A stretch of 56,176 nucleotides of DNA from Candidatus Nomurabacteria bacterium (GTDB taxonomy: Bacteria > Patescibacteriota > Minisyncoccia > Phycocordibacterales > UBA9973): positions 1 through 56,176 of the forward strand of contig DAIEQH010000001.1 of the NCBI GenBank assembly GCA_027347985.1. Direction: 5' to 3'. The notes below the pieces were generated by a model. The model ran no database searches, was not told the origin of the DNA, and worked only from the letters and a program-made list of their open reading frames with translations. Positions 13,534-43,883 of the stretch are shown piece after piece (the first letter of the stretch is position 1; every line of letters starts with the position of its first letter). Both the position numbers and the translations under genes were made by a program.

Positions 13534-16281
13534 TTATTGCATCGTAGAATACCTTGCCATGATTTCTTTCTCCACTTCTTCTCTATCGCGTCCGTATTTC
13601 ATATAAGAAAGTTGTTTTAGATTATCTACAATTTCCGGATTACCATTTTCCGGTGGCAAAGTTTTTATATTGAAAGGTTTCGTCGGCTGGCCGTGCACAA
13701 GCATACTCATATAGGCATTGTAATTATCAAGTTTGGTAATATCTTGGGCACTAAAGATTGGTTTAAATTTTGGCTCAAGAAAAGTCGCATCATCTGTCCC
13801 CACACGAAAGACAGCCATGGAGCCGACGTTACCAAAAACTGCATTTTTTATATTTTCTTCAAGTTGTGTGATATATTGGTGAGCAATGTTTAAAGATAAT
13901 CTGTATTTACGAGCTTCAGATAAAATAGAAGCAATAGAATCAGTCGTCACATTTTGAAATTCATCTATGTAAAGATAAAAATCATTCATCGGCTTACCAA
14001 ACATGTCTACTCTTGAGAGTGCAGCCATTTGAATCTTGCCGACAAGCACGAGACCAATCAAATTTGCATTGATATCTCCAAGTCGTCCTTTAGAAAGATT
14101 GACTAAAAGTATTTTCTTCTCATCCATTATTTTTCTAAAGTTGAAAACTGAGTTTTGTTGAAGTACGACTGGACGCATTATGTCATTTGAAATAAAATTA
14201 TCAAATTTAGAAGAAATATATGGCACAAAGTTCGCTAGCGATTGATCTCCCGTTGTCTGTTCGGCAGAAACCCAAAATTGTTTGATGATTGGGTTCTTGC
14301 ATTTAGCAATTTTCATATCTCGGAATTCTTTATCCGCTAAAACTCTGGTAATTTCAAGCAAGGTTGAGCCTGATTCCGGGTCTTCCATCACAAGAAAGGC
14401 ACTATTTCTAAAATATTGTTCGAACATTGCTCCGCCTCCGACTTTCATATCAAAAAGTTTATTAAATATGCCCATCATTTCATTAACTACGAAAGTCTTC
14501 TGTTCTGGATATTTTGGGTCATACTCTAGCATGTTAAGCCCCATCGGTCGCATAGTATAAGCTGGGTCAAAATAAATGACATCATCAATACGTTCTTTCG
14601 GAATACGAGAAAGAATAGTTTGAATATCTGTGCCGTGTGGGTCTATATAACAACAGCCATCGCCATTTTTTATATCTTGAGTAATCATATTGAGCATAAT
14701 ATTTGTTTTACCTGTACCCGTCTGACCTATAACATAGAAATGCCTCATTCTGTCTTCTCGTGACAAATGAACTATAGTGTCTTTGCCTCTGTAACTATTC
14801 ACCCCTAAAACAATTCCTTCTTGTCCCATTTCAAGAGGAGCCGGAGCGATGCCAGCTTTTGCTTCTTTCAATTGAGGTTGACTACCGATACCGACTGGGA
14901 AATGAAAAACAGAAGAGAGTTCTTTTAGATTCATCGGCAAAATTTTGTCACTAGAAAATGTACGATAAGAAAAATCATGAAAAAGTTTTCTTAAATCATT
15001 GCCTTTCAATTTTTCAAAAACAAAAGAGTTGCTAGCTGGCTCAGTAAATTGATTGAAGGATGATTCTATCTCTTTTAATATCCCCTCTGCCCTTTCACTC
15101 TCCTCTGCAGAAGTGATGATACGAATATTGGCTTTCATAATGGTGCTTTTCATTTTATTAGCTATTTTTTCTGCTGCTCCTTCGTCCACAGCACGCCTCC
15201 CGGGCATATGTTTGTTTTCACCTTCTTCTTTCTTCTTAGATCCACCTGTAAATGTATCTACCAACTCTCTCCTAAACTTATAAAAACCATCATCAGCATA
15301 TTTGATAGACATTCCTTTTTTGACATCATGCAAAATCGCACTGAATTGATTGATAAATTTCTCTCCAGCAGGCGCCACTACGAGTTGTATAGCTGCTCCT
15401 TCGCCTTGCGTCTTTAATTTTGAAAAAACATTCAAAATAATATTCATTGGGTCGTGATCTATCTGGTCATAAGTCTTTATCGGAAGTACAGAACGTTCCG
15501 TAAAGCTCGCATAAGCACCCGCCGAACCACCACGCTCATTAAAAATATTGTAATCATCTGACACTTCGTGGACTTTCGCATCATGATAAAAAGAAAGCAC
15601 TTGTTTTTCAAAAAGAGAAAGATGTTTGTTTGGTACCCCAGCAAACACGACAACTTGATCGGATGCATTACTGAGCGCCACTTCTAGAGTGAAATAATTT
15701 TCTTTTTCATTATTCTTTCCTTCAGAGATAGATTGCATGCCAGCATAAAATTGCTCCATCGCACCGATAAAATCCTTAAAACCTTTTTGCTTATCTGCTT
15801 CTTCTCTAGGAGGAGGAAGAGTAATTTCAAAAAGAGTCATGTTTAATGATTTATAAAGAGGAGTACCTGTTTTTATATCAAACAACTTTCCACCTTTTAA
15901 GTACTGAATGAGTATTCGATGAAAATCGTCATCTATATGTGGACTATTCATTTTTTCTACGACAGCCAGAGCGTTGCGTACTCCTTTAGTGATGACGATT
16001 CCTAAAAGTTCCTCCATTATATTGTCGTGTGATTCTGGTTTTAATGCGAGAACGATACTTTCTACTTCTTTATTTTTTATAACATTGTCTTTATGTATAA
16101 CTTCTTCAATCGGTTTTTCTTTGTAAGCATTGACAACTTCTTTAACTGCTTTTTCATTTGCATCTTCATGGCCTCTATCAATGAGTTCTTGTTCTTTTCT
16201 TGCAACATGTGCACGCAAATAGTTCAACTCTTCTTCTGGAGTTTTAAATTTTGGAGCTTCATTTAAAAATGCTTCCGCCAT
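13534..16281 (-). CDS. TraD/VirD4/TrwB-type coupling-protein-like NTPase fused to a large N-terminal module (ATPase 1)
   Basis: 915 aa. The C-terminal half has Walker A GQTGTGKT, YIDPHG, Walker B FYLYIDEFQN and EARKYRLSLNIAHQY. The N-terminal ~480 aa include a module homologous to ORF 52235-53530. No TM segment is apparent. Confidence 0.75.
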   Translation of the reverse strand: MAEAFLNEAPKFKTPEEELNYLRAHVARKEQELIDRGHEDANEKAVKEVVNAYKEKPIEEVIHKDNVIKNKEVESIVLALKPESHDNIMEELLGIVITKGVRNALAVVEKMNSPHIDDDFHRILIQYLKGGKLFDIKTGTPLYKSLNMTLFEITLPPPREEADKQKGFKDFIGAMEQFYAGMQSISEGKNNEKENYFTLEVALSNASDQVVVFAGVPNKHLSLFEKQVLSFYHDAKVHEVSDDYNIFNERGGSAGAYASFTERSVLPIKTYDQIDHDPMNIILNVFSKLKTQGEGAAIQLVVAPAGEKFINQFSAILHDVKKGMSIKYADDGFYKFRRELVDTFTGGSKKKEEGENKHMPGRRAVDEGAAEKIANKMKSTIMKANIRIITSAEESERAEGILKEIESSFNQFTEPASNSFVFEKLKGNDLRKLFHDFSYRTFSSDKILPMNLKELSSVFHFPVGIGSQPQLKEAKAGIAPAPLEMGQEGIVLGVNSYRGKDTIVHLSREDRMRHFYVIGQTGTGKTNIMLNMITQDIKNGDGCCYIDPHGTDIQTILSRIPKERIDDVIYFDPAYTMRPMGLNMLEYDPKYPEQKTFVVNEMMGIFNKLFDMKVGGGAMFEQYFRNSAFLVMEDPESGSTLLEITRVLADKEFRDMKIAKCKNPIIKQFWVSAEQTTGDQSLANFVPYISSKFDNFISNDIMRPVVLQQNSVFNFRKIMDEKKILLVNLSKGRLGDINANLIGLVLVGKIQMAALSRVDMFGKPMNDFYLYIDEFQNVTTDSIASILSEARKYRLSLNIAHQYITQLEENIKNAVFGNVGSMAVFRVGTDDATFLEPKFKPIFSAQDITKLDNYNAYMSMLVHGQPTKPFNIKTLPPENGNPEIVDNLKQLSYMKYGRDREEVEKEIMARYSTMQ

Positions 16282-17232: not shown

Positions 17233-18936
17233 TTAGTAGACTTCCTGATTATAGCATCTCTCACAATAAATAATCTCCGGTCTATCTGGGGAATAAGAAG
17301 TCTCAAACTCATTAGCACATCCTTCCTTCATACAATGTCTATGCCAGAGTTTAAGAGGATTTCTTTGTTTAAGTCTATTATAGTGTCTACAGTTAGGACA
17401 TAAGTGTGGAATGGGTAGATTCATTCTTTTATAGAAGGATAGTTCATCTGGTATGATTTTGAAGGCTTCAGTACATTGTTCATTACATTTACCTTTATGT
17501 TCACATTCTATGACTTTATTGATGATAGAATCATCTACTTCTTTGATGTTATTAGGAATATCTTCATTTTTGATATCTATTTGATAGTTTCTTTCTTCTT
17601 TCTCTTTCCAACTATATCCTTCCTTTAGGGCTTCTTCCTTAGTTAAGGGGAAGTATTCTTGTGCTATGGTTTCATTGTAGGAAAAGGGACTTAATTCAGA
17701 TGGAAAGAACTCTCCATACTTATATATTCTTCCTTTTTTATCCACATAGGGCATATCGTTCATGTGCTCTATGATTTTGGGAACCAAAGCTTCGTATTCT
17801 TCTTTTGTATATTGTTTGTTTAGGATGCAGTATTGCTTGGAGCGGAGACCGATGCAGGCGAAGAGGTCGTGGGACCCCGAGCAAAAATCGGAATAAGTAA
17901 GTTCATTTGAATCTCCACATGTGTTAGAAAACTTCGTTTGATTCGTCTTCCAAAAACCGAGGTATTCATAACAAAGTTCCATAAATTCACAATAGTTTGC
18001 ATCATATACATCTTTCCCATCTATCATTCTAATACAATATTTTTGATCATCACATCTTTTCACATCAAAACATTCATGTACATTTTTTGACTGAATAATA
18101 TTATTTCCAGAAACATTTTTACATTGTAATTCTACAGCAAATTTATGTGGAATGGTTGCTTTAAGTTTCAAAAATTCCTTTTTTATTTTTTCAAGACCTT
18201 CTTTTGTATCTAGTAATAATTTATCTTTTTTATCTAAATATTCTTCTCTTGTATAAGTTTTATTAAAAATATTATATTTCTGTCCACGAAGCCCTACACA
18301 ACCTATACAATCTTGGCAGTTTTTACAATCAAAACAATAGACAAGATCAAGCGAATTTGAACATTCTTGAGAAAAAATAGAATGTGAAAGTTTTTCACAA
18401 TCAATACATTCATAACAATATTCAGATTCCCGAGCAAGATAAGTGTCTACACAATATTTTGATTCATATGGTGAACCATATAAACAATTTTCTACATCAA
18501 TAGAACCGAAGCACAGATAACATGCTTTACCGTCTGCAAAATAATTACAATAATCACAATTTTTTGCATTTGATATAATCAGTGCTGGTCTTGGTGTTTT
18601 ATCTAAAAGTTTTTTAAATTGGGAGAAAAAAGTTTTTTCAAAATCATAATTTATTCTGAAATCTATAGGATTCCATTTATCTCCCCACCAACAATCATGA
18701 CAATAAACTGGGAAAGATTTATCTTTTGAATACATTGAGATAATTTGTTTCTTGCATAATTCACATACACGATGGTATAGGGTCCTTTCATTTCTCGCTG
18801 AAAAACGTCTTTGCAATCTGCATTCCGGACAAAAAGTGGGCGGAGGAACTTTTATCTTTTCATAAAAAGAAAAGTCGTCTGTCTCTATTGTGAAGTCTTT
18901 CTTGCAATTCTGACAAGATTTTATTTCTTTTTGCAT
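17233..18936 (-). CDS. Cys-rich zinc-ribbon-capped protein, paralog 1
   Basis: 567 aa with 42 Cys counted. The N-terminus has CQNCKKDFTIE..FYEKIKVPPPTFCPECR plus CELC-x17-CHDC. There are two copies of the (CxxC)n..LRxKxY(C)IxNKxYTxEEY unit. The C-terminus has LCPNCR plus C-x4-C-x17-CERC. No signal peptide. Confidence 0.7.
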   Translation of the reverse strand: MQKEIKSCQNCKKDFTIETDDFSFYEKIKVPPPTFCPECRLQRRFSARNERTLYHRVCELCKKQIISMYSKDKSFPVYCHDCWWGDKWNPIDFRINYDFEKTFFSQFKKLLDKTPRPALIISNAKNCDYCNYFADGKACYLCFGSIDVENCLYGSPYESKYCVDTYLARESEYCYECIDCEKLSHSIFSQECSNSLDLVYCFDCKNCQDCIGCVGLRGQKYNIFNKTYTREEYLDKKDKLLLDTKEGLEKIKKEFLKLKATIPHKFAVELQCKNVSGNNIIQSKNVHECFDVKRCDDQKYCIRMIDGKDVYDANYCEFMELCYEYLGFWKTNQTKFSNTCGDSNELTYSDFCSGSHDLFACIGLRSKQYCILNKQYTKEEYEALVPKIIEHMNDMPYVDKKGRIYKYGEFFPSELSPFSYNETIAQEYFPLTKEEALKEGYSWKEKEERNYQIDIKNEDIPNNIKEVDDSIINKVIECEHKGKCNEQCTEAFKIIPDELSFYKRMNLPIPHLCPNCRHYNRLKQRNPLKLWHRHCMKEGCANEFETSYSPDRPEIIYCERCYNQEVY

Positions 18937-19978: not shown

Positions 19979-21469
19979 TTATATCATAGGTTCTGCTTCC
20001 TGAGAAGCCACCTTTTTTGTTTCTGTTTCAGAAGTTTTTTCTTCTCCTTCACTTTTATTTTTCTTCCCTTTTCCTTCAATTATTGCTTTCTCTTCTGCAC
20101 TTCGGATAATCGTTGCCTCTTCTTCTTCAATAAGTTTTTGTGCGTCACCTTTGGAGATTGAATATTTCCTGCGAGATGCATCTAAAATTTCTTGACGATA
20201 TGAAGGATGAGTCGGAGGTAAAACTCTCAAAGATTCTGCAGAAAATGGATCGTAAGATTCTCCGTCAATAGTCATTTTGATATAAAATTCTGCCACAGCC
20301 AAGTTAATCATATCTTTCACACCGAACAGAGGCTCGAATTCTGGTTTTAATTTGACGGCATCTTCTCCACCGACTCTGAAACAAATGAGACTTCCTGTGT
20401 TTCCGAGCACTGCGTGTTGCACTTGTGGAATAAGCTGTCCGATGTACTGGTGCGCTATTGTCAGATTAAGAGCATATTTTCTAGCTTCTGACAAAATGTT
20501 TTCAAATGTTTGAGTGACAATGTTGTGGAACTCGTCTATGTACAAATAAAAGTCTCGACGTTCTGCTTCTGGAATACTTGCACGCTCCATTCCAGCTTGT
20601 TTTATTTTCGTCAAGAACATTGAACCGAAGAAACTTGAATTTTCTTCTCCAATGCGTCCTTTGGAAAGATTAATGAAAATGATTTTCCCTTCATTCATTA
20701 AGTCGCTGATATCTATTTTGTTTTGTTTCTGTCCGAAAATATTTCGGAGCAATGGGTCAGAGAGAAATTGTCCGAGTTTGTTGACTAGCGGAATGATAGC
20801 GTCCGTATCAAACTTCTCGGACCAATCCGCGAATTCAATAGCGAAGAATCTTTTAACCATGTCGTCAGTAATATACTCCACCACTTTCTGTCTGTAATTT
20901 CTGTCCGTCAACATTGAAATCATTCCGCGCATTGTGGCATGAGGATAATCAAGAAGTGCAAGGCAAGTGAAACGGAAAACGTGCTCTAAACGAGGAGTCC
21001 AGTTTGCTCCGAATTGTTTCTGCAAGACTTCGATTAAACCTTGAGTCAATTGAAACTTGAACATAGGATCGACATTCGCAAGCGGATTGAAGGAAGCTGG
21101 AAATTCAACATCTCCCGGGTCTATGACACAAATATCTTCTATGCGCTCTTTCGGAATATAATCAAGCATCGCGTCTATGACATCTCCGTGTGGGTCTATC
21201 AGACAAAGCCCGTGATTGTAAGTGACATCCTGACGGATAAGGAGCTCCAAGAGCTTCGTTTTACCAACGCCAGATTTTCCTACTATATATAGGTGTCTTC
21301 TACGGTCTATGCGTTTAATACCAAAGATAAATTTCTTCTCTTCTAGAGAAGCCACATAATTTGTGCGCCCAATAAAAGAAACCTCCTCAGGTTTAACTTT
21401 TCCAAATACTGGTAATTCTGGTGGAGGTGGTCCATATTTGATTATTTGCACTCGGTTCTGTCTTAACAT
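19979..21469 (-). CDS. TraD/VirD4-like coupling-protein-type NTPase, soluble (ATPase 2)
   Basis: 496 aa. Walker A GKSGVGKT, LIDPHGD, Walker B FYLYIDEFHN and EARKYALNLTIAHQY. The C-terminal tail is acidic/Lys-rich. No TM segment. Confidence 0.75.
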   Translation of the reverse strand: MLRQNRVQIIKYGPPPPELPVFGKVKPEEVSFIGRTNYVASLEEKKFIFGIKRIDRRRHLYIVGKSGVGKTKLLELLIRQDVTYNHGLCLIDPHGDVIDAMLDYIPKERIEDICVIDPGDVEFPASFNPLANVDPMFKFQLTQGLIEVLQKQFGANWTPRLEHVFRFTCLALLDYPHATMRGMISMLTDRNYRQKVVEYITDDMVKRFFAIEFADWSEKFDTDAIIPLVNKLGQFLSDPLLRNIFGQKQNKIDISDLMNEGKIIFINLSKGRIGEENSSFFGSMFLTKIKQAGMERASIPEAERRDFYLYIDEFHNIVTQTFENILSEARKYALNLTIAHQYIGQLIPQVQHAVLGNTGSLICFRVGGEDAVKLKPEFEPLFGVKDMINLAVAEFYIKMTIDGESYDPFSAESLRVLPPTHPSYRQEILDASRRKYSISKGDAQKLIEEEEATIIRSAEEKAIIEGKGKKNKSEGEEKTSETETKKVASQEAEPMI

Positions 21470-21548: not shown

Positions 21549-23234
21549 TTAGTATACTTCTTTATTATAACAACTCTTGCAATATATAATTTCTGGGCGT
21601 TCCGGTGCATAGCTTGTCTCAAATTCATTCTGGCATCCTTCTTTCATGCAATGTCTATGCCAGAGCTTAAATGGATTTTCTAATTGCAAACGTTCCTTTC
21701 TTCGACAATAAAAACATTTTCTAGGTATTGGAATTAAGTATTTTTTATAAAAAAGAAATTCATTTTTTGTAATTTTATAATTTCGATTACAAAGATCACA
21801 GGCTAGTACTTCATCTAATATAGATTCTTTAACTTCTAAAATTGAATCTTCTATCTGTTCTTTTTTAAGAGTTTCTTTATTTATTGTTTTTTGTACATCA
21901 TCCCACCATTTGAAACCATTATTAATTGCTTCTTCTTTGGTTAATGGAAAATATTCCATAGCTATAGTCTCATTGTATCCAAAATGTGATAATTTAGCAG
22001 GAAAAAATTCTCCATATTCTCCTGTTTTTTTCATATGTTCAATCAGTTTGTTTCTTAATTTAAAATACTCGTTTTTTGAATATTGTTTGTTTAAAATACA
22101 ATATTCTCCATGTTTGATAGCAGAACAACCAAATAGGTTTTTTGATGAATGGCAATTTTCAACATAGCTTGATTCTTGGCTTTTTAACGAATAAATAGAA
22201 AATAAAACTTGAAAATCGTGATCTGATGTGAGACTTTCATAAGACTCTGAACTTTTTCCACCAGGAGTAAGATCATAACTATCTTTTATTTCATTACTTC
22301 GCCAAATAAATCGTGAATCTTCTATTGCGCGGGACCAAAAAACATCTTTGGAATTTTTACTGTTTATTAAACCCTGTCCAGAGCATTTTACGCAATTTAA
22401 TATGTCGGCAAATCTTCTAATCTGCTTTTTCATAAATTCTGTAAACTCTTTTTTTGCTTTTTCTGATCCTGAATATGTTTCAAGATGATAATCTGCTAAT
22501 ATTTTTTCATATTTCTCTTTTGTATATTGCTTGTTCAAAATACAATATTTCTTTTGGCGTAAGTTTGCGCACATGAAACAATTAGAACAACCCTTACAAT
22601 CATAACAGAAAGAACAATCGTTGAGGGCAGAAGAATAGTAGCAATTTCGGCAATTGTAACAATGTTCCAAAAAAATTCCTTCATAAATAATTTGTGAGTA
22701 ATGAAAAATACCAAGACTGTCTACGACATCACTTGTTTCTGGACCTCCTATACTATAGCCATACATACAATCTTTGATAAACCAAGACATGGAGACCATG
22801 TAACAATTTTTAGCAAAAGTTACATTTTCTGTATATTCACAGTTTAGACTACCGATACCATCATCATTAAATAATGAGGGTAAGGGTACTTTGTCTTGCA
22901 ATTTTCTAAATTGTTCAAAAAAAGGTCGAGAAAAATCTAAATCCTGAGCATAACTTTTTGGATCCCATTTATCACTCCACCAACATTTATTACAATATAC
23001 TGTAAGCGACTTATCTTTATGATAAAGAGAAATTATAAGTTTTCCACACAAATCACAATTTCTGTTATAAAAAGTTATATCGTTACGCCAAGCCATTCTC
23101 CTTTGCTGTCTACATTCCGGACAAAAAGTCGGAGGGGGAACTTTTATCTTTTCATAAAATCCAAAATCATCTGACTCGATAGTGAAGTCTTTCTTACAGT
23201 TCTGGCAATTTTTTGTTTCACTTTTATATTCCAT
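21549..23234 (-). CDS. Cys-rich zinc-ribbon-capped protein, paralog 2
   Basis: 561 aa. CQNCKKDFTIE..FYEKIKVPPPTFCPECR, CDLC-x17-CNKC, two YCILNKQY(T/S)K units, and C-terminal CMKEGC-x17-CKSC. Confidence 0.7.
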   Translation of the reverse strand: MEYKSETKNCQNCKKDFTIESDDFGFYEKIKVPPPTFCPECRQQRRMAWRNDITFYNRNCDLCGKLIISLYHKDKSLTVYCNKCWWSDKWDPKSYAQDLDFSRPFFEQFRKLQDKVPLPSLFNDDGIGSLNCEYTENVTFAKNCYMVSMSWFIKDCMYGYSIGGPETSDVVDSLGIFHYSQIIYEGIFLEHCYNCRNCYYSSALNDCSFCYDCKGCSNCFMCANLRQKKYCILNKQYTKEKYEKILADYHLETYSGSEKAKKEFTEFMKKQIRRFADILNCVKCSGQGLINSKNSKDVFWSRAIEDSRFIWRSNEIKDSYDLTPGGKSSESYESLTSDHDFQVLFSIYSLKSQESSYVENCHSSKNLFGCSAIKHGEYCILNKQYSKNEYFKLRNKLIEHMKKTGEYGEFFPAKLSHFGYNETIAMEYFPLTKEEAINNGFKWWDDVQKTINKETLKKEQIEDSILEVKESILDEVLACDLCNRNYKITKNEFLFYKKYLIPIPRKCFYCRRKERLQLENPFKLWHRHCMKEGCQNEFETSYAPERPEIIYCKSCYNKEVY

Positions 23235-23277
23235 AATTCTTCATACCTACATACTCCAGTTTGTAAGGATGTTATTT

Positions 23278-25029
23278 TTAGTATACCTCTTTGTTGTAAC
23301 ATTTCTCGCAATAAACTATTTCCGGTCTGTCGGGAGCATAGGCTGTCTCAAATTCATTCATACATTTTCCTGAATGCTCGTGATTCTTTTTTTCGCACAT
23401 ACAAGTCCTGTGCCAAAGCTTCATCGGATTTCTTTTTCTCAATCTTTCTTCGTGTCGACAGATAAAACAAAGCCGTGGTAAAGGCACTCCTAGTTGACGA
23501 TATAAACTCAATTCATCTTTTGTTATTTTATATGCACCCAAGCAACGATCTATACATTTCCCTTCATGTTCGCAACCAATGATTTCATTGGTAATTGATT
23601 CTGGAATATCTTCTAAGCTATCCATTATATCTTTAGCTTTCATTGTCGTGACATATTCACTTATTTTTCTGTCTCTCCATTTATATCCCCTTTTTATTGC
23701 TTCTTCTTTAGTTAAAGGAAAATAATCTTGGGCCACTGTTTCATTGTAAGTAAAAGTTGAAAATTCCGCAGGGAAAAACTCTCCATACTTATAGACAATT
23801 CCCCTCTTGTCAACATAAGGAACATCGTCCATCTGCTTTTTTATTTTAGGAATGAGAGCTTCATATTCTTCTTTAGTGTACTGTTTGTTTAAAATACAAT
23901 ATTTTTTACTTCGAAGTCCGATGCAACCAAATAAATTGTCACAACCATGGCAATTGAAAGCATATTCAATATTATTAGAACTATAAACCACACTAGTGAA
24001 AAGATTACGGAAATTTCCTATGCCAGTGTTAAATGCTTCATATATCATTTCGCCTTCCCCTATCCCCGGTCCTGAGTCATAAACATCTTTTGCATAAAGA
24101 GCAACCCAGTGTATATATTTCGAATCTTCAATTCGTGTTCCTGATGCATCAAAACAAAACTTACAATTTTTTACCCCATCTAGATTATCTCCTGTAGAAT
24201 TCACCATTTTAGAATAATTAGCAAAACGATGTATTGATTTAATATAAAGTTCATTAAATTTCTTTTTTAACTCCAAAATGGTTTTATAACTTTTTAAATT
24301 TATTTTTGCTAAGCGACTTAAATATTCATCTCTACTTAGTTGCTCATTCCACATACAATATGATTTATTGCGAAGATTTGTACAACCAAAACAATTTGTA
24401 CAACCATGACAATCGTACAAAAAACATGAATCTACACAACTTTTACAATTAAATGAATATCTAGTTCGATAACAATCAGTGCAAAACAAACAATCATAAC
24501 AAAGTTCACAACGATAACAAACATAAAGATCTCCGCAATCTGTCGTATACGAAATTCTATTAGAATAAAAAGTTCTATCTATTCTCCAAGAACCAGAACA
24601 CATATAACTGTCTTTACTTCCTTCAGCTACATTACAATAATCACTATTGGTGGCTTTTATATTTGAAAGACATTGAATAGGGCTACTATTTCTCAATTCC
24701 TCCCACTGTTTAAAAAATGGTTTAGAAAAATCATATTCTTTACCGAGGGAAATAGGGTCCCATTCATCTCCCCACCAATATTTAGAATCAACTACTTTTA
24801 ATTTTTCATTAGGATGAATAAAAGAAATCAACATTTCATCATGCCCTGGAGCATCACATTTTCTTCTAAAGAAAGACATTTCGTTTCTCCAACACAAACG
24901 GCGAACGGTCCGACATTCGGGACAGAAAGTCGGCGGAGGAACTTTTATTTTTTCATAGAATAAAAAATCTTCTATTTCTAGAGTGAAGTCTTTCTTGCAG
25001 TTCTGACAATTTTTGACTTCTTTTTTCAT
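23278..25029 (-). CDS. Cys-rich zinc-ribbon-capped protein, paralog 3
   Basis: 583 aa. Same N-terminal ribbon, but the second (x17) ribbon has lost its cysteines. Two LRxKxYC..N.Q units. C-terminal C-x17-CEKC. Confidence 0.7.
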   Translation of the reverse strand: MKKEVKNCQNCKKDFTLEIEDFLFYEKIKVPPPTFCPECRTVRRLCWRNEMSFFRRKCDAPGHDEMLISFIHPNEKLKVVDSKYWWGDEWDPISLGKEYDFSKPFFKQWEELRNSSPIQCLSNIKATNSDYCNVAEGSKDSYMCSGSWRIDRTFYSNRISYTTDCGDLYVCYRCELCYDCLFCTDCYRTRYSFNCKSCVDSCFLYDCHGCTNCFGCTNLRNKSYCMWNEQLSRDEYLSRLAKINLKSYKTILELKKKFNELYIKSIHRFANYSKMVNSTGDNLDGVKNCKFCFDASGTRIEDSKYIHWVALYAKDVYDSGPGIGEGEMIYEAFNTGIGNFRNLFTSVVYSSNNIEYAFNCHGCDNLFGCIGLRSKKYCILNKQYTKEEYEALIPKIKKQMDDVPYVDKRGIVYKYGEFFPAEFSTFTYNETVAQDYFPLTKEEAIKRGYKWRDRKISEYVTTMKAKDIMDSLEDIPESITNEIIGCEHEGKCIDRCLGAYKITKDELSLYRQLGVPLPRLCFICRHEERLRKRNPMKLWHRTCMCEKKNHEHSGKCMNEFETAYAPDRPEIVYCEKCYNKEVY

Positions 25030-25045: not shown

Positions 25046-27130
25046 TTATTCCAAAATTTTTCTTAAAACATCTTCTGGAACTTCTTTAGAATTTATTTTA
25101 GGAGGTGTAGGTATAGCAATTTCCTCTTTCTTTTCTTCCACTTTTGGAACTTCTTCTGTTTTTATATTAGTAGATTGAATAAAATTCTTTAACTTATCCA
25201 TGTCTTCCTTACTTGCAGATCTATCTTTTAAGGTATTATTGGAAACCGGTTTATTATTCTTTAATTCATCTAGTGAAATGGAAGGTTCTGGTATTTTTTC
25301 AACTTTTTTTATTTCTGGTTCTATTTTTTTCTCTTCTTTTTTATTGTCTAAAATTTTATTTTCATTGAGTGTCTTATTTAAAATTTCTCTCAATGCTAGA
25401 TTTTCTTTTGGTTTTTCTTTAACAAAAACTTTCTTAATTGCTGAAAACATTTTTGGACGTGCTGAAGCTGTCGTAGATATGGTAGAAGTTTCTTTAGTTG
25501 GAATTTTTTTCTGATATTCTTGTGTTAAAGGTTTATCTACTCTTTCTGGATATCTTTCATCTTCCCCGTTTTTATCTTTTGATAAGAATTCAATACCCAA
25601 ATCAGACAATGGTTTATAAAATTTACTTTCATCTTGTTTAATCTGTTTAATAGAACCGGCAAGTGGCTTTAATTCCCCAGATTTTATTTTAGCAATACAA
25701 TCTTTACAATATACTGCCCTGCCTGCTTCTGGTTTGAAAGGCACCATTGTTTCTTTCTTACAGATAGAACATACAGCTGGAAACTTCTCTACTCCGCCTA
25801 TCGCATTGTCGTCACCGACAGACATACCACTCCAATCATTTATTTCTCTTTCTACCACTTCTCTTGGACGACAATAGAGCTCGCGGGAAGTTTTAATAAC
25901 TTCGTCTTCAACTTCTTTATTTCCAGATTTAACCATAGGTGGTAAGGTTTTTGCAGAAAATGGGCGTGAGGTTATGCCATCTATCATCAGCTTTAAATAA
26001 ATTTTGAAGTTTGGTAAATTCACAATATCTTGAGGCACAAATTCTGGTTCAAATTCTTTTTCTAAAAATTCTGCATCATCTGCACCCACTCGGAAAACTA
26101 TCATCGTACCAACGTTACCGAAAATGGAATCTCTGACGCTAGAATTTTTCTCCGATATGAGCTGAGCGGTATATTGATGAGCCACCGTCAGATTCAATCT
26201 ATATTTTCTAGCCTCAGACAAAATACTAGCGAAAGCATCCGTCACGAAATTTTGGAATTCGTCTACGTAAAGATAGAAATCTTTTCTTTCATCTTCTGGG
26301 ATACGTACACGTTCCATGGCAGCAAGCTGAATCTTAGTGATGATCATTCCTCCTAGAAGCGAAGAGTTATCCTCACCGATGCGTCCTTTAGAAACATTCA
26401 CCAAAAAAATTTTTCCTTCATTCATTATGTCAAAAATATTTATTGTGCTTTTTGATTGACCGACAATATTTCTGATGATGGATGTGGAAAGAAATTGCCC
26501 GACTTTATTTTGGATAGGAGCAATAGCTTCATTTCTAAATTTATCCTGCCAAGCTTCATACTCGTGAACCCAGAAAGCTTTTATAACAGGGTCTTTTAAA
26601 TTTGAAATTATTTTCTGACGGTAATCTTTGTCCACCAACATTCGGGGTATGCCTAAAAGCGTCGAACCCGGAGTATCAAGCAATGCCAAAATCGCATTAT
26701 TTAAAATATATTCCATACGAGCACTCCAAGCATTCGCCCAAATTTTTGTGAAGATGCCCATCAATCCTGAAGCGACTAGATGCTTGTATTTCGGGTCAAT
26801 AAGTTCCAAGACGTTAAAACCGATATGGTGTTCCGTGTCGGCTGGATTGAAATAAATAACATCTTTCATGCGATGTGGCGGAATAGCCGATAAAATAGCT
26901 TCAACATTTTCTCCATGCGGGTCAACCATACAAACACCGTCACCATTTTCAATGTTCTGGATAATCATGTTGAACATTAGGGCAGATTTACCGGTACCAG
27001 ACTTTCCGAGAATATAAACATGCTGGCGTCTATCTTTACGTTTAATGCCAAAAAGCACATTTTTGTCTCTATAAGTAGTGTAACCAATATAGGTGAGTTC
27101 TTTATTTTTAGGTATTTCCTTTAATTCCAT
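25046..27130 (-). CDS. TraD/VirD4-like coupling-protein-type NTPase with a C-terminal CxxC-x17-CxxC zinc ribbon and a Lys/Glu-rich tail (ATPase 3)
   Basis: 694 aa. GKSGTGKS, VDPHGE, FYLYVDEFQN and EARKYRLNLTVAHQY. The ribbon CSIC-KKETMVPFKPEAGRAVY-CKDC is at nt 25697-25771. Its stop is 16 nt from the start of paralog 3. Confidence 0.75.
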   Translation of the reverse strand: MELKEIPKNKELTYIGYTTYRDKNVLFGIKRKDRRQHVYILGKSGTGKSALMFNMIIQNIENGDGVCMVDPHGENVEAILSAIPPHRMKDVIYFNPADTEHHIGFNVLELIDPKYKHLVASGLMGIFTKIWANAWSARMEYILNNAILALLDTPGSTLLGIPRMLVDKDYRQKIISNLKDPVIKAFWVHEYEAWQDKFRNEAIAPIQNKVGQFLSTSIIRNIVGQSKSTINIFDIMNEGKIFLVNVSKGRIGEDNSSLLGGMIITKIQLAAMERVRIPEDERKDFYLYVDEFQNFVTDAFASILSEARKYRLNLTVAHQYTAQLISEKNSSVRDSIFGNVGTMIVFRVGADDAEFLEKEFEPEFVPQDIVNLPNFKIYLKLMIDGITSRPFSAKTLPPMVKSGNKEVEDEVIKTSRELYCRPREVVEREINDWSGMSVGDDNAIGGVEKFPAVCSICKKETMVPFKPEAGRAVYCKDCIAKIKSGELKPLAGSIKQIKQDESKFYKPLSDLGIEFLSKDKNGEDERYPERVDKPLTQEYQKKIPTKETSTISTTASARPKMFSAIKKVFVKEKPKENLALREILNKTLNENKILDNKKEEKKIEPEIKKVEKIPEPSISLDELKNNKPVSNNTLKDRSASKEDMDKLKNFIQSTNIKTEEVPKVEEKKEEIAIPTPPKINSKEVPEDVLRKILE

Positions 27131-30811: not shown

Positions 30812-31363
30812 ATGTCAAGCAAAATAGAATATTCCAATAAAATACTCAAGATTTTGGCAGAAAAACCAGCTATTCCTGTAGATGAAATAAAGAAAAAAAT
30901 TACCACCCCAGACCCCCTCTTCCACAAGGAGGGGGCATATGCCTTAACTCGCTCAATAAAAAATTTGATTGAGTCTGGATGTATTGAAATGATTCAATCT
31001 GACAATAAGAGCTATTTGAAGTTAACCAAAAAAGGAAAAAATAAATTAAACTCCATCAAACTCGAGGGAGATCAAGCACTCGTGTCTAATACTTGGGACG
31101 GTTTGTGGAGAATAATTATTTTAGATATTCCAGAAAACAGAAAAAACGAACGAGAAAGTTTGCGTTATCTTTTAAAGAAAGCTGATTTCGTTTGTATCAA
31201 AAATACTGTTTGGATATCCCCTTTTCCTTACGAACATCTTTTTACAAATATTAAAAAAGATTTAGGTCTCGGTACCGAGCTCATGATTATCGTCACAGAC
31301 AAAATTGACGAAGAAACAAAAAAATATTTTTTAAATAATGTTTTTAAATCCTCCAGCTTGTAA
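30812..31363 (+). CDS. PaaX-family-like winged-helix regulator
   Basis: N-terminal wHTH-like region plus WDGLWRIIILDIPENRKNERESLRYLLKKADFVCIKNTVWISP (PaaX C-domain pattern). It is divergent from dnaK. The 3' end overlaps the convergent ABC gene by 33 nt. Confidence 0.6.
   Translation: MSSKIEYSNKILKILAEKPAIPVDEIKKKITTPDPLFHKEGAYALTRSIKNLIESGCIEMIQSDNKSYLKLTKKGKNKLNSIKLEGDQALVSNTWDGLWRIIILDIPENRKNERESLRYLLKKADFVCIKNTVWISPFPYEHLFTNIKKDLGLGTELMIIVTDKIDEETKKYFLNNVFKSSSL
30903..30935. repeat. GC-rich palindromic mini-element, in frame inside the PaaX-like ORF
   Basis: ccaccccagaccccctcttccacaaggaggggg, encoding TTPDPLFHKEG. Confidence 0.65.
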
Positions 31364-33178: not shown

Positions 33179-34888
33179 TTAATAGATTTCTTTCTTATAA
33201 CACTCACTACAAAGCACTTTTTTAGGACCACCTTTTTCCTCTCGCAAATAAGTGGTGTTAATCTCTTTCTTACATAGAAAACATTCTCTTTTGTTTAAAA
33301 TCATAGGATTACGAAGCTTTAATCTTCTATTGTGTCGTTCTTCCGGATGAATCGAGGGTAACGGTAAATCAAATCTTCTATAAAAATTTAATTCTTGTTC
33401 TATAATTTTAAAAGGTTTACCGGTAATTTCACATTCGATAACTTCATTTAAAATAGAATCATTTACTTCAGAGATTGTCTTCGGTAAATCTTTACCTTTT
33501 ATTGTAACTTTATAAGAGCCAGGAATATATTCACGCCATAGGTATCCCTTCTCTTCTGCTGTTTTTTTATCTAAAGGAAAATAATCTTGAGCAACAGTTT
33601 CATTGTAAGCAAAAGGAGAAAGCTCGGAAGGAAAAAATTCACCATATTTATATACTCTACCTTTTTTGTCTACATATGGCATATCTAGCATATGCTGTTT
33701 TATTTTAGGAACCAGTTCTTCATATTTTTCTTTCGTATATTGTTTATTTAGAATACAGTATTTTTTCCCATTCATTTCTGTACAACCAAAACAATTCTGA
33801 CAATTATTCATCATAAAACTATAATAAATATCTTGAGAATACCAAATAATTGCACCCAAAAAACATTTACTATTTTCAACCCCAATACTTATACCTTCAT
33901 ATGTTAATTCTGAATTACCCCCAGAACCAGGACCGACATCATAAGCGTCACTACACCCCTGACTACCCCAATTTGCATATTTTACATTTTGAAATTCACC
34001 GTCTAAATCAAAAACATTATAACAATTGCGTGAGTTATATACATGGTCGCCGACAACATTTACAGTATTTACGAGTTTCACATCTCTATGAAATGCTTCT
34101 TCCCAAAGTTTTTTAAATTTGTTTCTAGCCTCTTCTATACCATCACGCGTGTTAAAAGCAAACTCATTTTTCTTCTTTAAATATTCCTCTTTTGTATATT
34201 GAATATTTTCAATGCAGTAAGTTTTATTTCTAAGATTAGTACATAAAATACAGTTAGAACAATTTCGGCAATCATATAAAAAATAAGAATCTAGGCAAGA
34301 TTCACTTTCTAGTGAAAAAAATAATCTACTGGAGTCTCGGCAATATACATTTTCATATCCGAACTCCAAATCATAACAAATATAAGAATCCTGAATAAAT
34401 TTACATCTAGATGCTCTATTGCAATATACGGAATCTTCACAATTCCAAGCTGCAGTAACTAAATAGCAGTTTTTCATTTCAACTGTTACATTACAAAATC
34501 TAGAATTTACCGACTTTGAATCAGATAAGGCAAGATGTGGCACTTCTTCCATAAGTTCAGCAAATTGTTTTAAAAATGGTTTAGAAAAATCATATTCTCT
34601 TCCATAAGAAGATGAATCCCATTTATCACTCCACCACATTTCTTTATCATAAGTTTTTACTCTAGCATCAGGATGAAAAACTGAGATAATTAAATCTTTT
34701 TTTCTCTCTTCTGCGTCTTGTCTACGAAACAACGAATGTTCATTTCGCCAAACGAGACGACGAGTTAGCCGACACTCTGGACACCAAGTAGGTGGAGGAA
34801 CTTTTATCTTTTCATAAAAATTAAAATCTTCCAACTCTATGGTAAAGTCTTTTTTGCAGTTCTGGCATTGTTTGATTTCTGATTTCAT
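33179..34888 (-). CDS. Cys-rich zinc-ribbon-capped protein, paralog 4
   Basis: 569 aa. CQNCKKDFTIE..FYEKIKVPPPTWCPECR. The x17 ribbon is degenerate. Two YCI.N.QYTKE.Y units. C-terminal CFLC-x20-CSEC. Confidence 0.7.
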   Translation of the reverse strand: MKSEIKQCQNCKKDFTIELEDFNFYEKIKVPPPTWCPECRLTRRLVWRNEHSLFRRQDAEERKKDLIISVFHPDARVKTYDKEMWWSDKWDSSSYGREYDFSKPFLKQFAELMEEVPHLALSDSKSVNSRFCNVTVEMKNCYLVTAAWNCEDSVYCNRASRCKFIQDSYICYDLEFGYENVYCRDSSRLFFSLESESCLDSYFLYDCRNCSNCILCTNLRNKTYCIENIQYTKEEYLKKKNEFAFNTRDGIEEARNKFKKLWEEAFHRDVKLVNTVNVVGDHVYNSRNCYNVFDLDGEFQNVKYANWGSQGCSDAYDVGPGSGGNSELTYEGISIGVENSKCFLGAIIWYSQDIYYSFMMNNCQNCFGCTEMNGKKYCILNKQYTKEKYEELVPKIKQHMLDMPYVDKKGRVYKYGEFFPSELSPFAYNETVAQDYFPLDKKTAEEKGYLWREYIPGSYKVTIKGKDLPKTISEVNDSILNEVIECEITGKPFKIIEQELNFYRRFDLPLPSIHPEERHNRRLKLRNPMILNKRECFLCKKEINTTYLREEKGGPKKVLCSECYKKEIY

Positions 34889-35001
34889 TTTATTTAAAAT
34901 TCCTCAACCAAAAAATTTTAACTCTAAATTTAATTGTCTGCCAAGCCATAGGCATGACATATCTGATATATTTTATTTTTGTTTTTATTCTTTCCATTTT
35001 A

Positions 35002-36780
35002 TTATATAAATTCTGCTTGATAACATTTCTCACAATATACTATCTCTTTTCTTTCAGGACTTATGGCTGTTTCAAATTCATTTTGACAAGGACTATTTCC
35101 GTGTATATGTTTTATGGTATTTTTATATACACCATCTTTTGATTCTACACCACTACACATACATTTTCTATGCCAAAGTTTTGGTGGATTTTTCTTTTTA
35201 ATTCGTTCACCATAACGACAATTTGGACATAAGTGAGGTAAAGCTATATTCGCCGAACGAAGAAACTGTAATTCATCAGGTAAAATGCGAAACACTTCAG
35301 TACATTCTTGTTTGCAATCTTCGTCTTTATGTTCACAAGAAATAACTTCATTTAATATAGAATCGTCTACTTCTTTTATATGATTTGGTAAATTTTCTGC
35401 TTTTATTGTTATTTGATAATTTTTTTCTTTCTTATCATACCATTTAAATCCTTTTTCCAATGCTTCCTCTTTACTTAATGGAAAATATTTATGTGCCCAA
35501 GTTTCATTATAGGCCCATAGAGAAAATTCACTTGGAAAATATTCACCATATTTGTATATTCTTCCTTTACTATCTATATAGGGCATTTCATTCATATGTT
35601 TAATAATTTTTGGTATTAGTTCTTCGTATTCAACTTTCCCGTATTGTTTATTTAAAATACAATATTTTTTATTTTTTAACTTTGTACAACCAAAACAATA
35701 AGAACAATTGTACATTTTTTCTGTATATGTTAAATCTCTAGAATCATAAGGAGCTCTACCAAAAAAACATCTTTGAGAGTGGAGGCCTCCAGAATTCTCA
35801 TAATAGAGTTCGGAACTACCGCCACCCAAAATAACATCATAACTATCTTTCAACAAAAGGCCACTAAGAAAAACATATTTACAATTTTCTATACCAAGAA
35901 GCGTAGAAAAACAAGTCTGACAATTTTTCGTTTGTTTTATATCATCCCCAGTAACATTTTTAGAGTTTATAATAATGGCAAAGCGTCTTGGAGTTTTGTC
36001 ATAGAGTTCTAAGAATTTTTTTTGTGCCTCCTGAATAGTCTTATAACTTCCTAAATCCCATTTCATCATTTCTTTCTCATACTCTTCTTTTGTGTATTGT
36101 TTATTAAAAATACAATATTTTTGATTTCTCAAATTAACACAACCAAAACAATTTGTGCATCCTATACAATTAAAAAGGAAAGAAGAATCGAGACATTCAT
36201 TTGAAAAATAGGTAAATTTCGTATTAAAAACTCCATTTGAATATATAGTTTCGTAAGTATGATCAGCATTTACAATTACATCGGAATCTAATAAATCTCT
36301 AGAAAATATTGGATTACCACAATAATAACAATTTATGCTTTGAAAAGATCCGAAAGTAAGCCTACAATTTTTACTACGTATAGTGGTATCACAATAATCG
36401 CAATCAGTACAATTTCTATTATCCGTAGCTTGGTAAGGTACTTCGTTTTGTAAATTCAAAAATTGTTCAAAAAATGGTTTTGAAAAATCATAGTCTCGTC
36501 CATAATCCAATTGATTCCAACTGTCTCCCCACCAGCAACTGTTACAATAGACAATATAAGAAGTATCAGGACGATATAAACTTACAATTTCTTTACCACA
36601 CTTATCACAACTATCTTTATATAAAAATCTATCTCCAATAAAAGTAAGTCGACGAATAAGTCTGCATTCCGGACACCAGGTCGGCGGAGGAACCTTAATT
36701 TTCTCATAGAAATTAAAGTCTTCGGGCTCAATCGTGAAGTCTTGTTTACAGTTTTGGCATTGTCGTGTTTCGTTTTTCAT
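35002..36780 (-). CDS. Cys-rich zinc-ribbon-capped protein, paralog 5
   Basis: 592 aa. CQNCKQDFTIE..PPPTWCPECR, CDKC-x17-CNSC, two YCI(F/L)NKQY units, and C-terminal C-x17-CEKC. Confidence 0.7.
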   Translation of the reverse strand: MKNETRQCQNCKQDFTIEPEDFNFYEKIKVPPPTWCPECRLIRRLTFIGDRFLYKDSCDKCGKEIVSLYRPDTSYIVYCNSCWWGDSWNQLDYGRDYDFSKPFFEQFLNLQNEVPYQATDNRNCTDCDYCDTTIRSKNCRLTFGSFQSINCYYCGNPIFSRDLLDSDVIVNADHTYETIYSNGVFNTKFTYFSNECLDSSFLFNCIGCTNCFGCVNLRNQKYCIFNKQYTKEEYEKEMMKWDLGSYKTIQEAQKKFLELYDKTPRRFAIIINSKNVTGDDIKQTKNCQTCFSTLLGIENCKYVFLSGLLLKDSYDVILGGGSSELYYENSGGLHSQRCFFGRAPYDSRDLTYTEKMYNCSYCFGCTKLKNKKYCILNKQYGKVEYEELIPKIIKHMNEMPYIDSKGRIYKYGEYFPSEFSLWAYNETWAHKYFPLSKEEALEKGFKWYDKKEKNYQITIKAENLPNHIKEVDDSILNEVISCEHKDEDCKQECTEVFRILPDELQFLRSANIALPHLCPNCRYGERIKKKNPPKLWHRKCMCSGVESKDGVYKNTIKHIHGNSPCQNEFETAISPERKEIVYCEKCYQAEFI

Positions 36781-36821
36781 GTTCTAATGCTTATTTTTGT
36801 CAAAGCCGAGCTTTGACATTT

Positions 36822-38492
36822 TTAGTTGATATTTTGCTTATAACACTCTTCACAAGCTATTTTTTGATATCCCCACTCTGGTAAATAATACGCTTCTATC
36901 TCCTTTTTACAATAAATACATTTATATGCATATGCTTGCAATACTGTTAAATCTTTCAAACTATTTTTTATTCTGACATCAAAATGCAACCTTGGGAGTG
37001 GAATATTATTTTCTTTATAAAAAATAAGTTCATTTTTTGCAATGTTAAAACGCCAGCCAGTTTCTGGGCAAATAAGCGCTTGAGTGATTATTGTATCCGA
37101 TACGTCTTTGATATCATCTGGCAATTCACTCGTTTGCATACCTTCTAAATTTTCTTCAACAATATCTTCCCAATAACCACCGAGTTTTAAGATATCTTCT
37201 TTTCTTGTCCTTGGGAAATAAGTAAAGCTGGTAGAAAAATTAAAAGGCCCAGCACTCATAGAATAAGGCAAAAACTTACCATATTCTCCTCTTTTTCTCA
37301 TGTCTTCAATAATCTTTGTCTTGAGCTTGTCGAAAGATTCTTTGGTGTATTGCTTATTTAAAATACAATATTTTTTCTTTTTTAAACCAACACAACCGAA
37401 ACAATATTCACACTCAATACATAAATCTATATATTCAGAATATCTTGAAGAAGACCAAACCGAATACTTAAGAGAAAAAGCATTTACACAGGCAGCACAA
37501 TTGCCAGATAATTCCATATACCAACAACCATTCGTATCAATGTTAGATTTTTCTTTTATTCCTCTAATACAATTAAAACAATCCTCACTTTCATTTATAG
37601 TATAACAACTATGACAATTCTTACAGTCTAACAAATAATCTCCAGTCGAATCATATATTCTAAAATTAAAGTTTGGTCTATGTATTACTTCTTTTTTTAC
37701 AATCTCTTCAAAGTGCTTCTTGTGATTTTGTATAGATTCATAAGAACCAAGCTTAAACGATTTTAATTTTTCTAAATACTCTTCCCTTTCATACTGAACA
37801 TTCTCTATACAATAGGATTTACCCCTTAAATTCCAACACATAAAACAATTCTGGCAGTTACGACAATCATAAAGAAAATATGAATCTACGCAATCTCGAG
37901 AGTGTTTGGAGTAAAATAGTTTGTAAGAATGATGACAGTCGCCAATTTCATAACATTTTTCTGAAGTAAAGCTGATAACTGCTTCGATAGAATTTTTAAC
38001 TTTCAAATCTCTATAACAATAATATAGGTCTTCACATTCTTCCATTGAGCGTGCTAAATAACAATTTTTAGAATTCCAGACATCATCACACCATTCGCAA
38101 TTTGTATTCTTTATACCATTCTGGTGCGGATGGGGGACTTTTTCTTGAAGCTCTTGAAGTTGTTCAAAAAACGACTTATTTTCATCATAATCTTGACCAT
38201 AATCCATCGCATCCCATTTATCGCTATACCATTCCGTGGAAGTATAAATCGGATAGCGATTTTTCTCTGGCAAAACTGTGATTAAACTTTCTCCCGAAAG
38301 GTCTGATTTACCTTTTCGAAATTTTCCAAACATCCAGAAAGATAAATGTATTTTTACACGACAAAAGAAACATATTACAGGTAATTCTATACCGACTTTT
38401 TCATACAAAGAAAGTTCCCCCTCTGTTATTTCAAAGGAATTATTACAGTGCTCACAAGTTTTACTTTGCTGTTTCATTGTACTCAAAAACAT
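36822..38492 (-). CDS. Cys-rich zinc-ribbon-capped protein, paralog 6 (most divergent)
   Basis: 556 aa. CEHCNNSFEITEGELSLYEK..CFFCR, two YCI(E/L)N.QY units, and C-terminal CIYC-x18-CEEC. An alternative start is M6 at 38477. With either start, the 5' end overlaps the grpE 3' end. Confidence 0.65.
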   Translation of the reverse strand: MFLSTMKQQSKTCEHCNNSFEITEGELSLYEKVGIELPVICFFCRVKIHLSFWMFGKFRKGKSDLSGESLITVLPEKNRYPIYTSTEWYSDKWDAMDYGQDYDENKSFFEQLQELQEKVPHPHQNGIKNTNCEWCDDVWNSKNCYLARSMEECEDLYYCYRDLKVKNSIEAVISFTSEKCYEIGDCHHSYKLFYSKHSRDCVDSYFLYDCRNCQNCFMCWNLRGKSYCIENVQYEREEYLEKLKSFKLGSYESIQNHKKHFEEIVKKEVIHRPNFNFRIYDSTGDYLLDCKNCHSCYTINESEDCFNCIRGIKEKSNIDTNGCWYMELSGNCAACVNAFSLKYSVWSSSRYSEYIDLCIECEYCFGCVGLKKKKYCILNKQYTKESFDKLKTKIIEDMRKRGEYGKFLPYSMSAGPFNFSTSFTYFPRTRKEDILKLGGYWEDIVEENLEGMQTSELPDDIKDVSDTIITQALICPETGWRFNIAKNELIFYKENNIPLPRLHFDVRIKNSLKDLTVLQAYAYKCIYCKKEIEAYYLPEWGYQKIACEECYKQNIN

Positions 38493-43785: not shown

Positions 43786-43883
43786 CTCTCTCTCTTATTT
43801 AATTTAATTAATTAAATTGTTGGTTGTGCAAATTTTTACTTAGAATACTCTCTCTCTTTACATGTCAAGCTTTATGTGTTTGT

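Follow-up and report, generated by a model that had tools for sequence, protein, structure and literature searches.

The C-terminal tails of the VirD4/TraD/TrwB coupling proteins recruit substrates (TraD-TraM), and FtsK has a C-terminal DNA-recognition domain. Here we describe a P-loop ATPase of the same superfamily, ATPase 3 (694 amino acids, aa; 25046-27130), whose C-terminal extension carries a small four-cysteine finger of a type that recurs in a neighbouring family of cysteine-rich (Cys-rich) proteins. Both are encoded on contig DAIEQH010000001.1 of assembly GCA_027347985.1 (Candidatus Nomurabacteria bacterium, one of the ultra-small Patescibacteria), positions 1-56,176 of the forward strand. 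This whole stretch of 56,176 nt is called the window in the following, and coordinates within it refer to the minus strand unless marked otherwise. The host genome comprises 646 kb, of which 3,744 open frames were scanned, with a contamination estimate of 5%; distribution was followed in two samples, one of 121 genomes from the phylum and one of 101 from the class.

The function of the 'orphan' VirD4-like ATPases of the Patescibacteria is an open question: 5,713 VirD4-like homologs have been counted, only 148 of them near virB4, and their role was left open (PMC12102498). For the finger, the closest described relatives are two small proteins of Methanosarcina mazei with the same CxxC-x17-CxxC domain, which bind zinc as measured by inductively coupled plasma mass spectrometry (PMC12704099). 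The phrase 'CxxC-x17-CxxC' was found in the literature only in this small-protein paper and in one unrelated paper, and searches for PF23477, TIGR04272, zf_Tbcl_2, PF13451 and zf-trcl found no papers. The explanation that we regard as probable, with some room for doubt, is that ATPase 3 carries this catalogued finger on the tethered tail of its motor as a zinc-binding recruitment module, the target of which is probably nucleic acid or another polyanion, and that the ATPase and the Cys-rich family are separable.

A catalogued finger on the tail of a motor ATPase

The core of the finger comprises residues 454-478 of ATPase 3 (25697-25771). The sequence-only reading, an earlier annotation made from the letters of the window, had reported CSIC-x17-CKDC at this place, and the translation, CSICKKETMVPFKPEAGRAVYCKDC, agrees with it letter for letter. 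The finger spells CSIC-KKETMVPFKPEAGRAVY-CKDC, that is, two CxxC pairs 17 residues apart with a conserved VPFxP...RPVYC core. ATPase 3 has six cysteines in total, and the motif arises in 0 of 20,000 sequence shuffles. All of the 120 closest database relatives, taken as the ortholog set (67-100% identity), have retained it, with VPFKP, GR and VYC conserved at 90-100%; in a profile of 26 diverse fingers C7, C10, F18, P20, C28 and C31 are invariant. A hidden Markov model search with the domain model, the check proposed with the sequence-only reading, finds ATPase 3 above both curated cut-offs: the full domain match (residues ~448-482, 25685-25789) scores 49.2 bits with TIGR04272 (NCBIfam cxxc_cxxc_Mbark, cut-off 36 bits) and 45.5 bits with PF23477 (Pfam zf_Tbcl_2, listed as a probable treble clef zinc finger, cut-off 27 bits), and the whole-genome scans give 55.2 and 51.4 bits, respectively. 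PF23477 is already part of the precomputed annotation of all 120 relatives, several of which have been named 'CxxC-x17-CxxC domain-containing protein' by NCBI or JGI. At residues ~448-482, ATPase 3 has a canonical copy of this catalogued domain (~37 residues, four cysteines), and the finger is an old and stable trait of the ATPase 3 orthogroup across the class and other classes of the Patescibacteria. Taken alone the finger of ATPase 3 matters little, being catalogued already and already naming the orthologs. It does mark one orthogroup among thousands of 'orphan' VirD4-like ATPases of the Patescibacteria, an orthogroup that is accompanied by a second ATPase and a membrane anchor. By analogy with the M. 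mazei proteins of the same domain, the finger of ATPase 3 presumably binds zinc.

ATPase 3 consists of a soluble VirD4/TraD/TrwB-like P-loop ATPase core (residues 1-~433), a flexible linker (residues 434-448), the finger, and a disordered tail. The core exceeds the Pfam cut-offs of PF10412 (TrwB_AAD_bind, 41.7 bits vs 20.5), PF02534 (T4SS-DNA_transf, 35.2 vs 20.1) and PF12696 (TraG-D_C, 28.7 vs 22), with PF01935 (DUF87/HerA) also above cut-off, and contains a Walker A motif (GKSGTGKS at 42) as well as a Walker B motif (FYLYVDE at 285). None of the three ATPases of the window has a transmembrane segment (no hydrophobic 19-residue window >1.6), and ATPase 3 scores far below every coupling-protein equivalog of NCBIfam, the best being TIGR03743 with 46.9 bits against a cut-off of 366. 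Together, the coupling-protein domains and Walker motifs, the missing transmembrane segment and the low equivalog scores point to a motor of the VirD4/TraD type that is not a canonical coupling protein. Like type IV coupling proteins and FtsK, ATPase 3 joins a P-loop motor of this superfamily to a C-terminal extension that could recruit a substrate; unlike type IV coupling proteins, it lacks an N-terminal membrane anchor, and the window contains neither type IV secretion system (T4SS) genes nor a relaxase gene. Outside the window, VirB4-like genes are found on two contigs (C58:2556-3980, E 2e-32, and C83:145-1032, E 5.5e-28; TIGR00929, both below cut-off), and a T4SS-type ATPase therefore exists elsewhere in the genome.

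In the AlphaFold2 (AF2) model of ATPase 3 (mean predicted local distance difference test, pLDDT, 65.5) the motor core is reasonably confident, whereas the linker 434-448 and most of the tail fall below 50. Between them, residues 450-490 form a bead with pLDDT 70-81, in which two strands (450-453, 460-463) precede a helix (476-483) with its start at the second CxxC (C475/C478). The order of a zinc knuckle, a hairpin and a second CxxC at the helix start corresponds to a treble clef by predicted topology. The finger had been called a zinc ribbon; the modelled element order does not bear this name out, as it differs from the two hairpins of a classic zinc ribbon. A search of PDB sequences with the profile of the 26 diverse fingers gave no match below E 0.07, and no solved structure was found in this way. 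With the M. mazei proteins and other TIGR04272/PF23477 members, ATPase 3 shares the CxxC pairs 17 apart, the VPFxP...R(P/A)VYC core and the predicted treble-clef order. The small proteins of this domain stand alone, whereas the finger of ATPase 3 is a bead on the tail of a motor ATPase of ~700 aa.

The tail (residues 479-694, 25046-25696) was assessed by composition, conservation and AF2, and is K/E-rich and predicted to be disordered. It comprises 216 aa with 19% K, 13% E and 7% P and a net charge of +7. The earlier description as a long low-complexity Lys/Glu/Pro tail holds for the richness in K and E; uniform low complexity does not hold, since the alignment of 64 orthologs contains near-invariant islands at residues 500-515 (DE..F.KPL.DLGIEF), 565-569 (IKKVF), 636-651 (KDRSAS..DM.KLK) and, as the fourth, 683-694 (the C-terminal EVPEDVLRKILE). 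These islands look like partner-binding linear motifs.

The finger is found above cut-off in 54 of the 121 phylum genomes and in 84 of the 101 class genomes. Carriers other than the ATPase are mostly unrelated small proteins with one or two fingers amid RGG-like, Lys-rich low-complexity sequence; those of at least 160 aa have a net charge of +11 to +23. Large carriers, in which the frame with the finger reaches 500 aa or more, occur in 77 of the 101 class genomes, and the 20 that were inspected gene by gene, drawn from the class and phylum samples, are all orthologs of ATPase 3.

Tethered behind a VirD4/TraD-like motor by a linker of low model confidence, the finger would act as a recruitment module. 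Its most likely target would be nucleic acid or another polyanion. Two points favour this choice: other carriers of the finger in the phylum are mainly small, strongly basic RGG/Lys-rich proteins, and the motor belongs to a family of DNA-handling ATPases. Several observations weigh against this reading. Searches of the literature with the domain name and with the Pfam and NCBIfam identifiers give zinc binding only and no other ligand. The tail of ATPase 3 itself is only mildly basic (+7 over 216 aa, finger region +3), and the polyanion argument therefore rests mainly on the other carriers. Among the carriers of the 77 large-frame genomes, the gene check covers only 20, some of which come from the phylum sample. 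The AF2 confidence for the finger is moderate (pLDDT 70-81), and models were compared by the order of their elements. Finally, ATPase 1 (13534-16281), which has the same core fused to an N-terminal module related to a membrane anchor, is without a finger, a pattern that suits docking of the finger to the anchor equally well.

It is also conceivable that the finger is a purely structural zinc knob without a ligand of its own, capping and stabilising the ends of a solenoid in the Cys-rich proteins and, in the ATPase, forming a folded bead that acts as a spacer or protection for the disordered tail. The Cys-rich proteins lend this idea some plausibility: their four fingers (A, B, A' and B', see below) lie at either end of the solenoid, which is modelled with confidence, and three paralogs (3, 4 and 6) tolerate the loss of the cysteine ligands of B. 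Against it stand the strong conservation of non-cysteine positions (VPFKP and GR.VYC, 90-100% in 120 orthologs) and the small basic proteins, in which the finger is the only folded element; both argue for a surface that is used, and we consider a mere knob improbable.

Diverged fingers of the same type in the Cys-rich family

The window encodes six Cys-rich paralogs with 29-42 cysteines each, none of which reaches the cut-off of any Pfam or NCBIfam family. The family is very large, with at least 8,000 candidates, and every source name shown is 'hypothetical protein'. Paralog 1 (567 aa, 17233-18936) has, by alignment and AF2, the architecture [A+B] - Cys-lined beta-solenoid - [A'+B'], in which the letters denote small fingers. 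Finger B of paralog 1 (residues 58-82, CELC-x17-CHDC, 18691-18765) is of a diverged PF23477 type (15.2 bits, below cut-off; 96-97% in hhalign against the ATPase fingers), and its C-terminal counterpart B' (C535, C540, C558 and C561; C-x4-C-x17-CxxC, 17251-17334) aligns with the ATPase fingers at 69-86%. The corresponding finger B reads CDLC-x17-CNKC in paralog 2 (22983-23057) and CDKC-x17-CNSC in paralog 5 (36535-36609), the latter with 19.1 bits for TIGR04272 and 20.9-22.1 bits for PF23477, both below cut-off.

All paralog motifs listed in the sequence-only reading are present: besides the B fingers of paralogs 1 and 2 these are C-x17-CERC in paralog 1 (residues 540-561), C-x17-CKSC in paralog 2, C-x17-CEKC in paralog 3, and both CDKC-x17-CNSC and C-x17-CEKC in paralog 5. 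They occupy the same alignment positions wherever present. Paralogs 1, 2 and 5 retain the cysteines of finger B, and 3, 4 and 6 have lost them; genes at the matching positions of a related locus (L001) are likewise without an exact CxxC-x17-CxxC in finger B. The four cysteines of B' are invariant in 76 sequences, with a first pair that is CxxxxC or wider in paralogs 1, 2, 3 and 5. As to the ending said to be common to all copies, P-x6-YC-x2-C, which fits ATPase 3 and the C-terminal copies, describes it better than ..P....YC..C.

B and B' remain below the curated cut-offs, with 11-22 bits in the paralogs of the window and 26.1 bits as the best value of the genome (C-terminus of the protein on C53), and a precomputed PF23477 match is found in one of 120 listed Cys-rich homologs (P0084). 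In profile-profile comparison by hhalign, finger B matches the ATPase finger with 96.3% (E 1.8e-9) and a diverse ATPase finger set with 97.0% (E 1.3e-10); for B' the corresponding values are 69% (E 4.4e-5) and 86% (E 5.4e-6), and B and B' match each other with 96.4% (E 1.1e-9). The fingers A and A' (x24 type) serve as internal controls and reach only 0.9-9% (E 0.0035-0.064) against the ATPase fingers. Overall, finger B matches bona fide members of the domain with 95-97% (E 1e-10 to 3e-8), and the top hhalign match of the 26-diverse-finger profile is residues 53-85 of paralog 1 (80%, E 1.3e-5). The AF2 models, compared by the order of secondary-structure elements, show strand, knuckle, strand and helix in B and B' of paralog 1 as in the ATPase finger. 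In genome G029, a stand-alone protein of 103 aa combines PF13451 (84.9 bits) with a subsequent PF23477 (53.3 bits); its alignment with the Cys-rich family model covers positions 3-85. These results consistently identify B and B' as diverged PF23477-type fingers and homologs of the finger of ATPase 3, so that the small domain proposed to be shared by the ATPase and its neighbours reflects homology and not mere spacing. An exchange of the domain inside the system, with B specifically nearer to the ATPase than to stand-alone fingers, was considered and rejected, as the difference (97.0% vs 95.2%) is too small.

The spacing of 17 residues could in principle recur by chance or convergence in unrelated fingers. 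Such accidents do happen in this genome: an exact regular expression has 16 occurrences in the 3,744 frames, all in ATPase 3, its paralog on contig C78 or the Cys-rich family, and seven of them are accidental and lie in the Cys-dense central repeats. For the finger itself, a coincidence is highly improbable. The motif is absent from all shuffles of ATPase 3 and arises in 0.2-1.4% of those of the paralogs, the position of the finger is constant across paralogs and orthologs, the control fingers have far lower profile-profile scores, and the stand-alone protein of G029 bridges the two families. Nor is the motif spread over unrelated proteins of the genome, an outcome that the sequence-only reading had named as counting against a special link; it is confined to ATPase 3, the C78 paralog and the Cys-rich family. 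In the scans with TIGR04272 and PF23477 the two ATPases are the only matches above cut-off, the sub-threshold matches at E <= 0.01 all fall in Cys-rich family members, and the weaker ones do so with two exceptions, which are short and partial and lie in small frames (C113, C42). Contig C78 (1,928 bp, outside the window) encodes another ATPase with a finger, which is 62% identical to ATPase 3 (CSACGLEKTVPFKPEPGRPAYCKEC); after it comes the N-terminal part of a further Cys-rich gene. This ATPase may be a true paralog, or the contig may stem from a related organism that was binned with the genome.

Finger A has its best Pfam match in PF13451 (zf_Tbcl, 18.5 bits, E 0.002, below the cut-off of 24 bits), and profile-profile comparison shows A and A' to be homologs (98.9%). 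The Cys-rich proteins are thus built from a tandem of a zf_Tbcl-like and a zf_Tbcl_2-like finger at both ends of a Cys-lined beta-solenoid. The assignment of their fingers to PF13451 and PF23477 is absent from the existing annotation and extends a known kind; for a family so far without annotation, this gives a description as two tandems of known finger types that flank a solenoid. Stand-alone tandem proteins of 91-103 aa are encoded at L010 4893-5201 (G029, 103 aa) and L018 303-575 (G037, 91 aa). These mini-proteins have the same order of fingers as the termini of the Cys-rich proteins; unlike them, the Cys-rich proteins place a Cys-lined solenoid of ~400 residues and an alpha/beta region between two tandems, whereas ATPase 3 has the second finger type only. 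Compared with TIGR04272/PF23477 members, the copies in the Cys-rich family are too diverged for the cut-offs, and some are without cysteines.

The AF2 model of paralog 1 is confident (pLDDT 85, predicted template modelling score 0.85). When it was compared with the PDB by Foldseek, nothing reached E <= 0.001; the best hits, LpxD and GlmU, are enzymes with a left-handed beta-helix, and with E 0.1 and TM-scores <0.15 they are taken as a generic solenoid resemblance. The profile of the Cys-rich family gives only weak LIM-type matches to B' in the PDB (E 0.004-0.16), and LIM zinc fingers (PF00412) likewise resemble B' weakly (E 0.002-0.03). LIM domains are, unlike B', double fingers, and B' scores below every threshold, so this is a resemblance only.

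At least 12 full-length Cys-rich copies plus fragments are found in the host genome, making up ~3-4% of its DNA; the contigs concerned are C42, C43, C53, C85, C90, C93, C96, C100, C113, C117 and C133. In some relatives (G170, G209 and G143) there are Cys-rich copies with in-frame stops.

Gene order and separability of the two families

In the sequence-only reading, the shared finger was taken as a sign of a common ligand or of contact between the ATPase and the Cys-rich proteins. The distribution does not support this. The Cys-rich family is patchy, occurring in 16 of the 101 class genomes with 1-13 matches per genome, and a large-frame finger is found in 13 of these 16 genomes and in 64 of the 85 genomes without the family, that is, at the same frequency. 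Conversely, the four genomes G020, G073, G082 and G031 encode 5-15 Cys-rich copies together with several ATPases, and none of these ATPases has a detected finger. Neither the ATPase finger nor the Cys-rich family depends on the other in its occurrence. As the finger is a promiscuous module, common in the phylum, the two gene families are not linked by having it in common; the finger-less ATPases beside Cys-rich arrays, the lost B cysteines of paralogs 3, 4 and 6, and the equal nearness of B to stand-alone fingers all speak against the earlier interpretation.

What does link the ATPase to the neighbouring Cys-rich family is a conserved gene neighbourhood. Three close relatives have the same gene order as the window: grpE, a varying number of Cys-rich genes, a PaaX-like gene in opposite orientation, dnaK, ATPase 3 with its finger, two or three Cys-rich genes, ATPase 2, and dnaJ. 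In the window, paralogs 4, 5 and 6 (33179-38492) lie between grpE and an ABC transporter gene upstream of dnaK, and paralogs 2 and 3 (21549-25029) directly downstream of ATPase 3. ATPase 2 (19979-21469) is a paralogous ATPase without a finger and the constant partner of ATPase 3 in related genomes. The third recurrent component is a membrane-anchored protein (52235-53530) with a transmembrane segment at residues 1-34. It is related to residues 1-490 of ATPase 1 (BLASTP E 3e-9), and its homologs adjoin the finger-bearing ATPase in 7 of the 12 related loci that were examined and lie in the same cluster in the other five. Distant genomes without the Cys-rich family have ATPase 3 directly beside the anchor homolog (L005-L008). 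Genomes with one to three Cys-rich copies usually have one of them in or near the cluster of anchor, ATPase 2 and ATPase 3; this is the case in G157, G164, G170, G198 and G201. In G196 the copy is found downstream, 5 kb away from the cluster, and on a short contig of G121 it lies beside ATPase 2 (L029-L034, L038). Gene order, and not the finger, links the ATPase and Cys-rich families.

The anchor, ATPase 2 and ATPase 3 form a compact and widespread cluster, in some cases joined by one Cys-rich gene. It is found in several families of the class (L029-L034), where it has no linkage to dnaK. The merger of the cluster with grpE-dnaK-dnaJ seems specific to the lineage of the window, a lineage in which the Cys-rich family has also expanded.

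The same gene order would suit a shared docking handle, by which ATPase 3 and the Cys-rich proteins, through their fingers, bind one another or a common protein surface. The surface could be on ATPase 2, the membrane anchor or the all-alpha domain of the motor, and the tail and the Cys-rich proteins could compete or cooperate in one machine. The fingers are homologous, single-copy Cys-rich genes lie between or beside the two ATPases in a conserved order, the short motifs of the tail are conserved in a manner typical of partner binding, and the absence of a finger from the fused anchor-ATPase 1 form is as expected if the finger replaces a covalent link. We nevertheless consider such a handle doubtful, given that the ATPase carries its finger in the 64 of 85 genomes that have no Cys-rich family, that finger-less ATPases stand beside Cys-rich arrays in G073, G082, G031 and G020, that three of the six paralogs of the window have lost the cysteines of B, and that B is no nearer to the ATPase fingers than to stand-alone ones. 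A more far-reaching version, which we hold to be quite unlikely, would make the finger a common address tag: the tail of ATPase 3 and the Cys-rich solenoids would dock on the same site of an undescribed machine formed by the anchor and two soluble VirD4-like ATPases, with the Cys-rich proteins as cargo or adaptors and, in the lineage of the window, the Hsp70 system recruited into the same operon, giving an export or assembly pathway specific to Patescibacteria.

Recruitment of nucleic acid or another polyanion by the finger remains our preferred reading, with docking on the anchor, on ATPase 2 or on the Cys-rich proteins as a rival that stays in play. The interesting object is the wider system of the anchor, two ATPases, Cys-rich solenoids and the Hsp70 operon, in which the shared finger is a minor supportive detail. 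Knowledge of the binding partner of the finger would be a cheap entry point to the system of anchor and two ATPases.

Two further observations concern neighbouring genes. The PaaX_M-domain protein (67 bits, 30812-31363, plus strand) is encoded divergently from dnaK, a position that is kept in L001, L003 and L004, and is a candidate regulator of the operon. Two similar open reading frames of 231 and 250 aa (3885-4580, minus strand, and 43824-44576, plus strand, respectively) share YH.YNRG.EKR.IF and CLMPNHFH.L, and look like IS200/RAYT-type Y1 transposase genes.

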